The position numbers were made by a program, and so were the translations under genes. Shown one piece after another: positions 15,433 through 20,231 of a stretch of DNA of 64,000 bases (position 1 is the stretch's first letter; each line of letters begins with the position of its first letter). A model generated the notes under the pieces. The model did no database searches, was not told the DNA's origin, and saw only the letters and a program-made list of their open reading frames with translations. Source of the stretch: Escherichia phage Phi1; sequence record EF437941; one strand, given 5' to 3'.

Positions 15433-16833
15433 ATGGCAAACAATACTATTAACCATGTAAAAGACGATGCTCAATACGTCAAGTTTAACCCTGTAAATGA
15501 TTGGCCTCAAAGCATTACCAACGTACAAGCGGCTTTAGCCGCTATTAATGGCTTTGCCGTAAATGGATTACCGGACGCTACGGAAGATACAGCCGGGATC
15601 GCTGCAATCGCAACTCAGGAAGAAGTAAACGACGGGACAGTAGACAATAAGATCGTGACTCCAAAAACACTGGCTGTTAAAATGTCACGTCCAGATGCTA
15701 CAAAAGAAGTAAAAGGCATTACCCGATTTGCCACGATGGAAGAATCGCTGCAAGAGAGCAACGAGAACATGGCAATCGGTCCAGACACACTAAACCATTA
15801 CTTCACCACTAAAAAGGCGTCAGAGAGCGTTCAGGGGACTATTAAGATATGTTCTCTTGAGGCGGCAAAGATTGGCAGTGATGACACAATGGCAGTAACA
15901 CCGAAAAAGATGCACACTGCCATTGCACAGATTGTACCGGGATTAATTCCAGATCAAAACACAGCAACCGAAAGCACACAGGGTTTAGTTCAGTTAGCAA
16001 CCAGTGCGCAAGTTTTACAAGGCCAGATTCGAGAAGGTTTTGCAATTAGTCCTTATGCATTTGCAAATGCTCGCGCCAATGAGAATCAGGCGGGTACTGT
16101 TAAGATCGCCAACCAGTCACAGATGAATGCTGGTTCAGATGATACTGTAGTTGTTTCTGCCAAGAAGTTTGCAAGCACTAAGGCAACAACGTCTCAATAC
16201 GGTATTGTTAAACTACGAGACACCGTAGGAAGTGAGGCTAACGCTGCACTATCAGCAAATGCTAAGGTTCTTCCTAGCACTGGCGGTACGGTAAGCGGAA
16301 ACGTCTATAAAGGTTCAAACTCAGACGGCAACCAGTTTGTTACTAAAAATGAATTAGCGAATCATGCAATGCCAATTGGTGGTATTATCCTTTCTGGATT
16401 CAATGCCGATCGAGGTGACTTTCTGATCTGTAATGGTCGTTCACTGAATAAAAATCAATATCCGCAATTATTTTCTGCGATTGGTTATACCTTTGGTGGT
16501 TCAGGTGACAATTTTAACATTCCTGATATGCGCGGTTTAGTTGCTCGTGGTTGCGATCATGGAAGAAACCTTGATCCAGGTCGTCGATTTGGTTCTTATC
16601 AAGAAGACGCAATGCAGAGAATCACTGGTAAATTCCCTGTAGCTGACCGCTGGCGCGGTTGGTATGGTGGCGCATTTACTGCACAGCGCGGTCAATGGAG
16701 CACGAACTATAAAAACGGTGGTGGTGATGATTGGGGTACTACTGTTAACTTTGACTCAGGAAGATCCGTAAGAACGGCTAACGAGACTCGCGTCAAGAGT
16801 CTGGCATTAAACTATATCATAAGGGTGCGCTAA
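15433..16833 (+). CDS. 12: short tail fibre protein gp12
   Basis: 466 aa; N-terminal region and C-terminal PDMRGLVARG / LNYIIRV resemble T4 gp12. Confidence 0.9.
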   Translation: MANNTINHVKDDAQYVKFNPVNDWPQSITNVQAALAAINGFAVNGLPDATEDTAGIAAIATQEEVNDGTVDNKIVTPKTLAVKMSRPDATKEVKGITRFATMEESLQESNENMAIGPDTLNHYFTTKKASESVQGTIKICSLEAAKIGSDDTMAVTPKKMHTAIAQIVPGLIPDQNTATESTQGLVQLATSAQVLQGQIREGFAISPYAFANARANENQAGTVKIANQSQMNAGSDDTVVVSAKKFASTKATTSQYGIVKLRDTVGSEANAALSANAKVLPSTGGTVSGNVYKGSNSDGNQFVTKNELANHAMPIGGIILSGFNADRGDFLICNGRSLNKNQYPQLFSAIGYTFGGSGDNFNIPDMRGLVARGCDHGRNLDPGRRFGSYQEDAMQRITGKFPVADRWRGWYGGAFTAQRGQWSTNYKNGGGDDWGTTVNFDSGRSVRTANETRVKSLALNYIIRVR

Positions 16834-18602
16834 TGATTGAACAATTAAACATCCACGAGATCCCACATGTTGACGGTGTACCAAGCGAAGGACAGCACCG
16901 TATTATTTGGATCAAGAATGGCGAATGTTTAAGCGCAGCAACGACACAGACTGGCAATGACGGGACGCTTAACCGCGCCCCGGTTGCAATTCAAGAAAAC
17001 GTTGCACGCGTAAACGAAAACGCAAAATCAACCGTCGCTAAAGTTAACGAGGTTGTAACGGCGGTTAACGATATTAAAACAACTTTAGGGGTAATTTCTG
17101 ACGGAAGTATCATTGATGTGGTTAACCAGACTGTCGCAAAAGTTGAATCCGTCGAAGAGAACTTAGGAGAAACAGCAAGAACTCTGCAAACAACGGTAGA
17201 CGCTGTATCAGAACTTAACATCAAGATTGGTGATCGCCCCGCTGCCGATCCGAGCACAAGAACAATCTATGATGACATTTCTTTCATCAAACAAGAAATG
17301 GGTTCTTATCCTAACTTTAATATCAATGGTTCCCCTGATGCTGGCAGTTCCGGTTCTGGCATCAAATACCGAGTTATTCAGAATACCGCAGCATTAAATG
17401 ACCACGGTCGCCGAATCGTTCAGCTTGAAAACGACTGGCAAGATTCTGACGTAGGCGAGTTAACAAGACAAGTTAACAAAATGCGCAGTGAGATCGGCGA
17501 CACGTCTCTTGCAACACAAGAAAATGTGTATGTTCGTCTCCGCACCAACGCAAGAAACATTGCTAACATATCAAACGAAGTTCTAGAAGTCAAGAAAGCA
17601 ATTTTGTTTGATTCAATCCCTGATATCGGGACTAAAGTCACTACTCTGGGAACTAATTATGAACTTCTAAACAATGATGTTAATGGTGTAGATTCTGGTA
17701 TTCGTCCTCGTCTTCTGGCTGTCGAGAATAAGATCGGAACGCCTCAATCGGCTGGAAGCATTGATTATCGATTAACCAACACAGAGCGAGAATTTTTAGA
17801 TCTTAAACAGGTTGTTGGTGTAAGCGGTGCTGACGGTTTGCGCGGTGAAGTTGTTCGACTTTCCAATGAGATTGGCACTGACAGCGATCGACATACTCTA
17901 GCCGGACGTCTTAAAGTTGTAGAAAACACTCAGGGTCGGTTAGAAGCAAGCGTACAGGACATGGAACAGATTGTAGGTGATCGCGAATCAGGTTTGACCG
18001 CTGGCGTTATTAAACTATCAAGTGATATCTATGGCGATGATGGTTCAGAAGATCCATTTACTCAGAAAGGCGTGATTAAAATCGTCAAAGAGCTACAAAC
18101 ATCTAACGGAAACAAAGTAGATGATGTACCTGATGACGGTTTCCATTATCTGCGTAAGCGCGGAGAATGGGTGCAAGTTGCATATGCTGCTGGAGCATTT
18201 AAAAATACCGCAGATATTACGGTTGAACTCGACGAACAGGATGTTTATAAACCGATTCCGCTTAACGACATGGCGGCAGAAGTTAATGCTCGTCAAATGG
18301 TGAAAAGTGAATCTGTTGTTACCGTTCAGGACAAAGGTTTATTCCGTTGTGTATTCCGTTGTGCTGTACAAGCTCAACATAATGCAACATTCATTGTTGC
18401 GATTTTCAAAAATGGACAGATGGTATATGAAGCGAAAAATGGTCATTACGGCACAGACGAATTGATCAGCTATTCTACCAGTGCTTTCCTAAATATTGAA
18501 AAGGGCGATCAAATTAACATCCGTATTAAGGGTGTATCTGTCGAAGCAGTAGCACAACCAGTACAAATTAAAGAGTTCCTCTTTGGGATTTCTCCGGTAT
18601 AA
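16833..18602 (+). CDS. wac: fibritin (whisker antigen control) with extra C-terminal C1q/TNF-like domain
   Basis: 589 aa; N-terminus VDGVPSEGQHRIIWIKNGE like T4 Wac; foldon-like GFHYLRKRGEWVQV followed by about 130 extra residues. Confidence 0.85.
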   Translation: MIEQLNIHEIPHVDGVPSEGQHRIIWIKNGECLSAATTQTGNDGTLNRAPVAIQENVARVNENAKSTVAKVNEVVTAVNDIKTTLGVISDGSIIDVVNQTVAKVESVEENLGETARTLQTTVDAVSELNIKIGDRPAADPSTRTIYDDISFIKQEMGSYPNFNINGSPDAGSSGSGIKYRVIQNTAALNDHGRRIVQLENDWQDSDVGELTRQVNKMRSEIGDTSLATQENVYVRLRTNARNIANISNEVLEVKKAILFDSIPDIGTKVTTLGTNYELLNNDVNGVDSGIRPRLLAVENKIGTPQSAGSIDYRLTNTEREFLDLKQVVGVSGADGLRGEVVRLSNEIGTDSDRHTLAGRLKVVENTQGRLEASVQDMEQIVGDRESGLTAGVIKLSSDIYGDDGSEDPFTQKGVIKIVKELQTSNGNKVDDVPDDGFHYLRKRGEWVQVAYAAGAFKNTADITVELDEQDVYKPIPLNDMAAEVNARQMVKSESVVTVQDKGLFRCVFRCAVQAQHNATFIVAIFKNGQMVYEAKNGHYGTDELISYSTSAFLNIEKGDQINIRIKGVSVEAVAQPVQIKEFLFGISPV

Positions 18603-18608
18603 GAAATT

Positions 18609-18632
18609 AAAGGGGCGTTAAGCCCCTTTTTC
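18609..18632 (+). terminator. rho-independent terminator after wac
   Basis: Hairpin AGGGGC-GTTAA-GCCCCT followed by TTTTT. Confidence 0.65.
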
Positions 18633-18647
18633 GTTATAGGTGATATT

Positions 18648-19580
18648 ATGTCAGGATATGTAACCAACAACCCAAGAGAATTAAAAGACGCTATTCTGCG
18701 TCGTTTAGGCGCACCAGTAATTAACGTAGAAGTAACAGAAGACCAGATTTACGATTGTATTCAGAGAGCATTAGAACTCTATGGGGAATATCATTTCGAT
18801 GGTGTGAATAAAGGATATAAAGTATTTCGTGTTAGTGCAGAGCAAGCGCAACATGGGGTATTTGATTTGAGCGATTCTGGAGTATTCGCAGTAACTAAAA
18901 TAATTCGAACAAACGTAGGTAGCGCGGCTACGATGGATGGCACTGCCGTTTATCCGTGGTTTACTGACTTTCTGTTGGGTTTAGCGGGTGTAAATGGAGG
19001 TTTAGGATCTGGCTGTAGTAAATTTTATGGTCCAAATGCAATGGGCGGTGATCTAGGATATTTCGAACAGCTTATGAGCTATCGAGCCACTATGCAAAAT
19101 ATGCTTAATCCTCTTCCCGATTACTGGTATAACAGCGCAAACGGACAACTTAAGATTACAGGAAACTTCCGAGAAGGTGATCTCATTGTTGTTGAATTAT
19201 ATGTTAAAAGCTATGTAGACGTTCCTGATATGATCGGCGCGGTTGCTGGTTATGCTCATGCTGGAGGATGTTCTACCGCTGGCGGGATTAGCGCCGTTTA
19301 TGATAATCCAACTGCTGGTTTAAGCGGGATTGTTGCTGGCATGGGACCAATCAGTGAGAACAAACAGGGCGCATATAATAACCGTTGGGTGAAAGATATG
19401 GCTACCGCCTTCACTAAGGAGGTTTGGGGGTCCATCATGGCTAAACATCAAGGTCTGCAATTACCCGGTGGTGTCACTGTTGATGGTATCCGAATCATTG
19501 AAGAAGCACGCGCCGACATTGAGAAATTGCGACAAGAACTAGAATTATTAGATCCTCCGTTCGGCATCCTCATGATTTGA
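18648..19580 (+). CDS. 13: neck protein gp13
   Basis: 310 aa (T4 gp13 about 309 aa); synteny. Confidence 0.8.
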
Positions 19581-19646: not shown

Positions 19647-20231
19647 ATGGCATATTATTATCTATATCAAATAACAAATAATTTAAATGGGATGGTCTAT
19701 GTTGGTATGAGAACGTCCAAAAAACCAATAGAAAAGGATTCTTATTGGGGGAGCGGAAAACGAATTAAAAGAGCAATAAAAAAGTATGGAATAGAGAACT
19801 TCACAAAAACTATTCTTTCCACACACAACACGTTAGAAGAACTAGCTTTAGCAGAAAAAAAGATAGTGACTAAGGAATTTGTAGAAAGAGAAGATACATA
19901 TAATATTGCTCTGGGTGGAGTGAATAGAGGTTCTTTGTGGGATGACATGGACGAAGAAACCAAAAATGAAGCAAGAAGAAAAATATCTGAAAAAGCATCC
20001 AGTCGAAAAAGAGAATCTCACTCAGAAGAGACTAAAAATAAAATGAGTCAATCGGCAAAAAATAGAAATAGAGATTGGGAAAATTTTAAAGGCGCAAGAA
20101 AAATTATGGCAGAAGGTGTTCTATACTTAACCACTCAAGAATGTTGTAGAAAGTATGGGATATCAGCCGCTTCTATGAGGAAACGAGTAAAGTCAACCGC
20201 AGAAAAATGGAAGGAGTTTTATTATGTTTGA
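19647..20231 (+). CDS. GIY-YIG homing endonuclease (Seg-like)
   Basis: N-terminal [19 protein letters not shown] (GIY-YIG motif), conserved R and YGIENF block, NUMOD-like [10 protein letters not shown]; inserted between genes 13 and 14. Confidence 0.8.

Follow-up and report, generated by a model that had tools for sequence, protein, structure and literature searches.

What caps the neck whiskers of an RB49-like phage, and what would such a cap be doing there? The question is raised by the fibritin gene (wac) of Escherichia phage Phi1. T4 fibritin stops 7 residues past its foldon hairpin, whereas the Phi1 protein adds 140 residues that are predicted to form a globular domain. A preliminary description of this DNA had read the extension as a C1q/TNF-like domain that would put a trimeric ligand-binding head, possibly an auxiliary adhesin or environmental sensor, on the whisker tips. 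Here we follow up that proposal in a 64,000-nucleotide stretch of Phi1 DNA (record EF437941; hereafter the window), which belongs to a T4-type coliphage of the RB49-like (Krischvirus) group.

The open reading frames of the window run gene 12 - wac - gene 13, the order annotated in RB49 and JSE (Table 1), and the wac product matches PHROG 1056 'fibritin neck whisker' with an E-value of 4.9e-186. At the nucleotide level, wac is 99.4% identical to its counterpart in GEC-3S and 99.0% identical to that of RB49. The stop codon of gene 12 overlaps the start codon of wac in a TAATG at window positions 16831-16835, an arrangement that suggests that translation of the whisker gene is coupled to that of the short-tail-fibre gene. 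On the other side, the GC hairpin in the gap before gene 13 has a perfect 8-bp stem and a terminator-like score on either strand.

Table 1. Features of the wac locus of Phi1 (window positions; aa, residues of the wac product)
Feature	Position	Strand	Basis
Gene 12 (short tail fibre)	15433..16833	+	Pfam Collar E 1.6e-16; RB49 annotation
wac (fibritin, neck whisker, RB49 type), CDS	16833..18602	+	1770-nt ORF, 589 aa, no internal stop
N-terminal collar-attachment domain, aa 1-50	16833..16982	+	Alignment with 1ox3/2ibl (T4 fibritin N-terminus), E about 5e-15
Segmented coiled-coil shaft, aa 51-428	16983..18116	+	Collinear with T4 fibritin shaft
Foldon-like beta-hairpin segment, aa 429-449	18117..18179	+	Pfam Fibritin_C profile positions 70-92/93; T4 foldon alignment
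N-terminal segment of predicted knob, aa 450-489, presumed strands A/A'/B'	18180..18299	+	Pfam BclA_C alignment from domain residue 8
Predicted jelly-roll core of C1q/TNF-like knob, aa 490-589, strands B-H	18300..18599	+	
Terminator-like GC hairpin AAAGGGGC-GTTAA-GCCCCTTT with T-rich tail, wac/gene 13 gap	18609..18629	+	Consensus scan, sequence
Gene 13 (neck protein)	18648..19580	+	Synteny with RB49 and JSE annotations

Up to the foldon, the protein is a T4-type fibritin (Wac) by every mark: homology of the N-terminus and shaft, a Fibritin_C match above threshold and a position between genes 12 and 13. In a phmmer search of the PDB, residues 6-431 are collinear with T4 fibritin (2bsg/3j2o; E about 3e-49; aa 7-431 against 5-435 in the alignment that defines the shaft), and Pfam Fibritin_C (PF07921) spans residues 368-451 with 105.4 bits (E 1.7e-30), far above its curated cut-off of 21. 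The T4 foldon in 2bsg (residues 456-480) pairs with residues 425-449 and the foldon chains 1rfo and 4ncv with residues 429-449, and the core motif of the foldon, GFHYLRKRGEWVQV, occupies residues 436-449 (nt 18138-18179). Thus Phi1 shares with T4 fibritin (2bsg, 1aa0, foldon 1rfo) the collar-binding N-terminus, the segmented coiled coil and the foldon hairpin; attachment to the collar is the published role of the N-terminal domain of fibritin (PMC3797505). Within the shaft, residues 59-108 (window about 17007-17156) also match the Pfam family Bflower_2, the '5-fold beta-flower protein', below its cut-off of 38 bits (20.4 bits, E 4.8e-4), and this match is probably spurious.

After V449 the frame stays open for another 140 residues (nt 18180-18599) before it meets a stop, so that the foldon-like segment followed by a C-terminal extension, put earlier at about 130 residues, is confirmed. 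The junction between the two has no linker (…EWVQV-AYAAGAFKNTADITV…). The extension could have been absent as protein. Instead, wac is exactly 589 codons long and free of indels in all seven Krischvirus genes compared, and across these genes the extension has a dN/dS of 0.07-0.22, which denotes purifying selection. Its amino acid identity to the window's version is 74-97%, against 75-100% for the remainder of the protein, and its first part (aa 450-489) is the most variable, at 68-97% among Krischviruses. Because of this constant length and these dN/dS values, comparison of the genes indicates that the extension is a conserved, translated part of fibritin and no chance open frame.

The existence of the extension is not in itself new. 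RB49 gpwac is the same protein (589 aa in both, with the domain 97% identical in amino acids), which makes the Phi1 fibritin RB49-type, and 'RB49-type' fibritin with an expanded C-terminal domain had already been classified (Letarov et al. 2005; Letarov & Krisch 2013, PMC3797505). In the searchable literature we found nothing that ties fibritin to a C1q, TNF-like or jelly-roll head, and no fold for the RB49-type domain. While the extension has been known since 2005, the assignment of a predicted fold to it may be new.

How widely does this domain occur? By tblastn, we found the extension in 56 Krischvirus records, where it invariably forms the end of wac; the fibritin of Serratia phage WSPA (Muldoonvirus) likewise ends in a version of it, with 27% identity. 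An exhaustive HMMER search of 1.84 billion representative proteins gave seven matches, which contain two true clusters: Krischvirus itself and a 591-aa fibritin from an uncultured lineage (P0007, 28% identity). The other five are repeat proteins whose scores were inflated by repetition and which are no homologues: P0004 and P0009 carry NHL-type repeats, P0005 and P0008 are giants made of tandem repeat units and P0006 is of low complexity. With them we dropped the idea of a tandem-repeat monomeric module. A scan of IMG/VR detected no loci beyond Krischvirus-like ones. Word-indexed protein searches yielded only two 110-aa fragments and one seeming relative that terminates at the foldon (P0010; contig L007, ENA ERZ27268015 k141_11135, 1064-1888); the alignment available for structure prediction is therefore shallow. 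The contig of P0010 proved to be an inverted-repeat assembly chimera with an Illumina adaptor end, so its early stop is an artefact. In the sequence collections searched, the domain is thus confined to fibritins, namely those of Krischvirus plus two rare lineages.

Does the extension have the jelly-roll fold that had been proposed for it? Profile searches point that way at scores below the curated cut-offs. BclA_C (PF18573) scores 20.8 bits on the extension (E 3.8e-4, cut-off 38), with its 128-position profile aligned from position 4 to 114, and 7/8 of the family members match it; C1q (PF00386), matched by 3/8 members, comes up with an E-value of 0.011 (16.4 bits, cut-off 23.7). Of the two families named in the preliminary description, C1q is therefore recovered below its gathering threshold, and the TNF ligand family (PF00229) gives no sequence-profile match in the extension. 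Since the scores lie under both curated thresholds, membership of C1q or BclA_C by homology is not established. When compared by hhalign with the gC1q domain of adiponectin (sequence checked against PDB 4dou/6u66), the extension scores a probability of only 15% (P 0.0018), with C1q strands C, D and F/G in correct register: GLFRC pairs with GLYYF, VAIFKNG with VSLFKKD and SAFLNIEKGDQINIRIKG with GSVLLHLEVGDQVWLQVYG. In fact, the three motifs singled out earlier (GLFRCVFRCAV, aa 502-512; FIVAIFKNGQMVYEAK, aa 520-535; SAFLNIEKGDQINIRIKG, aa 550-567), which like the foldon motif were all located where they had been placed, fall in register on C1q strands B/C, D/E and F/G.

Structure prediction carries the argument further. 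We computed two AF2 models, both monomeric, from alignments of 5-6 sequences, with mean pLDDT values of 64-66. Model 1, of the 140-residue domain alone (5-row alignment, mean pLDDT 66, pTM 0.62), predicts a beta-sandwich of eight strands and one short helix, with pLDDT 75-84 for its residues 41-140 and below 50 for its residues 1-32. Model 2, which covers aa 395-589, predicts the same strands and shows the foldon hairpin at low pLDDT; the first part of the knob (aa 450-489), which stays below 50 in model 1, partly reaches 65-86 here. When model 2 was compared with the PDB by Foldseek, gC1q heads filled nearly all of the top 40 places, led by collagen X NC1 (3.1e-6) and followed by C1QL1-3, adiponectin, Cbln1, CTRP5 and Caprin-2. 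Against BFVD, the matches were phage tail fibres, 'C1q domain containing' proteins and collagen-repeat proteins. TNF/C1q-superfamily proteins came out on top for both models and with two search programs; the predicted knob also resembles BclA (1wck/3twi), and its modelled topology is that of the ten-strand jelly-roll of TNF type. The extension is thus predicted to be a C1q/TNF jelly-roll, a claim that prediction supports at the level of the fold. This part of the preliminary description stands, carried by two models, two search programs and the register of the motifs, while the sequence thresholds for C1q and BclA_C were both missed.

Could a shallow alignment have misled AlphaFold, so that in reality the extension is a monomeric Ig-like, CBM-like or other module and no C1q/TNF head at all? 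The mean pLDDT and the five or six alignment rows would allow it, and a search of the family profile against PDB sequences yielded nothing better than noise, with ribosomal L15 and, at E 0.06, Ig domains of NCAM. Such a modelling artefact is nevertheless very improbable, because the two models and the two search programs agree on one superfamily, and so do the separate, near full-length sequence matches to two of its Pfam families. We also considered a self-cleaving intramolecular chaperone of the S74 type and rejected it: Peptidase_S74 has no Pfam match in the wac product, and the predicted fold is all-beta.

Two further BFVD models look like the knob, both of small proteins that stand alone in other T4-like phages: A0A192YAF6 (141 aa) from Morganella phage MP1, which is annotated 'fibritin neck whiskers', and A0A1J0MHA5 (159 aa) from Klebsiella phage KPV15. 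C1q/TNF-like modules may, on the evidence of such models, occur at other fibritin loci also.

How would such a domain sit on the whisker, and what would it do? The trimers of C1q/TNF heads have their chain termini at the base, an arrangement that suits a head placed atop a trimeric stalk. Three copies of the knob would be packed around the fibre axis, because the knob follows the trimeric foldon without a linker; RB49 fibritin, moreover, has been published as trimeric. We envision that the last 140 residues fold as a C1q/TNF-like (BclA_C-like) jelly-roll, three copies of which form a globular knob capping each whisker, and that this knob serves as C-terminal registration point and folding nucleus for the trimeric coiled coil. 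In fact, gC1q/NC1 heads and the C-terminal domain of BclA nucleate the folding of their own collagen-like stalks. Published biochemistry, in the account of the 2013 review, speaks for a similar task in RB49-type fibritin: the foldon motif alone suffices for trimerisation only in T4 and JS98 fibritins and is insufficient in RB49, where trimerisation and folding require the expanded C-terminal domain according to the authors' own summary (PMC3797505).

Lying at the far end of the whisker, the knob would in addition be a docking surface, and its likeliest partner would be the long tail fibres of the phage itself. The C-terminal part of T4 fibritin touches the long tail fibre in the vicinity of the knee, where it aids attachment and keeps the fibres retracted (PMC3797505). 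It has been remarked in print that the C-terminus of RB49 Wac is unrelated to that of T4 and that fibre handling is possibly different. We infer the identity of the ligand from the pattern of conservation: the phage's own fibres fit better than a variable host receptor because the knob is free of indels and under steady purifying selection. A trimeric C1q/TNF-like knob that nucleates whisker folding and docks, probably, the long tail fibres of the phage is in our estimate a slightly better than even proposition.

Comparison with known systems places the knob among familiar devices. The gC1q heads (C1q, adiponectin, Cbln1, collagen VIII/X NC1; PF00386) and BclA (PF18573) sit on collagen stalks, whereas Phi1 has no collagen-like Gly-X-Y stalk upstream of its knob and uses an alpha-helical coiled coil plus foldon instead; identity to these relatives is only 10-18%, in keeping with the two sub-threshold Pfam scores. 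The tail-needle knob of Sf6/HS1 has the same architecture, a trimeric alpha-helical coiled coil with a TNF-like homotrimeric tip, the trimer being presumed in Phi1, and that knob does not determine host specificity (PMC3741392). TNF/C1q-like tips also occur on the short tail fibre of A-1(L) (CBD, 8ke9) and the tail fibre of A4 (9k09), both of cyanophages, on PRD1 P5 (1yq5) and on the central spike knob of phi812 (9eul). All of these belong to tail or vertex fibres that contact the host, whereas the Phi1 knob is on the neck whisker, a structure whose known role in T4 is the handling of the phage's own tail fibres. Other fibritins follow the same principle of an exchangeable head on a conserved N-terminus and shaft, with an Ig-like end in RB43, a tail-fibre-like end plus chaperone in Aeh1 and an SGNH hydrolase in Acinetobacter phages. 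The folds of these heads are unrelated to that of the knob, and the RB49 type differs in retaining the foldon and placing its head after it.

The heads of RB43 and of the Acinetobacter phages suit the host surface, and because of them a host-binding role for the knob stays plausible. The trimeric knob might be an auxiliary adhesin or lectin for a glycan such as LPS core, O antigen or capsule, with the six whiskers providing weak, reversible pre-adsorption or sensing the cell surface. Letarov and Krisch propose adhesin-like roles for some fibritin variants, and tail-fibre tips and lectins are found among the structural neighbours of the predicted knob. We nonetheless consider this rather doubtful. 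Unlike receptor binders of the gp37/gp38 type, the knob is free of indels, lacks hypervariable loops and keeps a dN/dS within the low range given above. No binding motif is recognisable in it, and the residues that are invariant across its three lineages are turn and core positions. Moreover, host-range differences between RB49-like phages and selected host-range mutants map to gp38 alone (PMC9569957). The more specific idea that each whisker tip is a trimeric C1q-like lectin for a conserved glycan of the host envelope, giving a second, neck-borne, low-affinity means of attachment or sensing beside gp38 and gp12, strikes us as unlikely. If true, it would help to explain the broad host range of RB49-like phages and how they cope with O-antigen layers, and bacterial viruses would then have their own counterpart of C1q-type pattern recognition. 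A 2026 preprint on receptor prediction reports that k-mers of the fibritin gene are predictive of LPS sugar; we set this aside, the simplest cause being linkage to the adjacent gene 12, and the supplements of that preprint contain nothing on fibritin.

At the other extreme, the knob might have no ligand whatsoever and be a purely structural cap that nucleates or stabilises the coiled coil, with fibre contact taking place elsewhere on the shaft. BclA and the NC1 heads of collagen X/VIII, which are primarily trimerisation nuclei, are among its top structural matches, and the sole experimental statement at hand concerns folding and trimerisation (PMC3797505). Yet in T4 a foldon of 27 residues performs this task, and a foldon is kept here; moreover, in comparison with JSE-type phages the knob has about double the dN/dS of the shaft (0.19 vs 0.08). 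That 140 residues have been kept under purifying selection in three lineages although the foldon is retained suggests an added function, and we regard a cap without a ligand as quite improbable. The knob that both nucleates folding and docks the tail fibres is the reading we retain.

Since TNF/C1q-like knobs on trimeric phage fibres are already well known (Sf6/HS1, PRD1 P5, cyanophages), the Phi1 whisker would represent no new kind of system. It would add the case of a C1q/TNF-type head that caps an alpha-helical coiled coil from behind a foldon, which is relevant wherever protein engineers use foldon-type trimerisation tags, and it agrees with the view of fibritin as a shaft bearing exchangeable heads. 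The predicted fold turns an "unrelated C-terminal moiety" into a testable trimeric C1q/TNF-type knob with mutable surfaces, in phages that are broad-host-range candidates for phage therapy.

The recent history of the knob can be followed in part. Its GC content of 0.402 is near the window mean of 0.407, so the knob bears no sign of recent import, and we dropped a recent foreign origin as unsupported. In comparison with JSE-type phages, dS is about 0.86 for the knob (18180-18599) and about 1.7 for the rest of wac (16833-18179), with similar dN; this pattern, which underlies the dN/dS of 0.19 against 0.08, may stem from recombination in the past that made the 3' ends alike, or else from a more relaxed constraint on the knob. 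The wac of Escherichia phage Ec_Makalu_002 (L011/L005; region corresponding to window about 18300-18700) is a recombinant: it is 97-100% window-like until about window nt 18300 and then 100% JSE-like past the stop and into gene 13, with the breakpoint inside the knob, at the boundary between its N-terminal segment and its jelly-roll core. Further downstream, the gap between genes 13 and 14 holds a 194-aa ORF on the plus strand (window 19647-20231) that resembles GIY-YIG homing endonucleases of the SegE type (Pfam SegE_GIY-YIG, E 9.5e-7; I-TevI DNA-binding domain, E 6.6e-4), with a GC content of 0.337 against 0.407 for the window. In RB49 and JSE gene 14 directly follows gene 13 with no SegE-like ORF between them, and for this reason the ORF looks, from its sequence and setting, like a mobile insertion.
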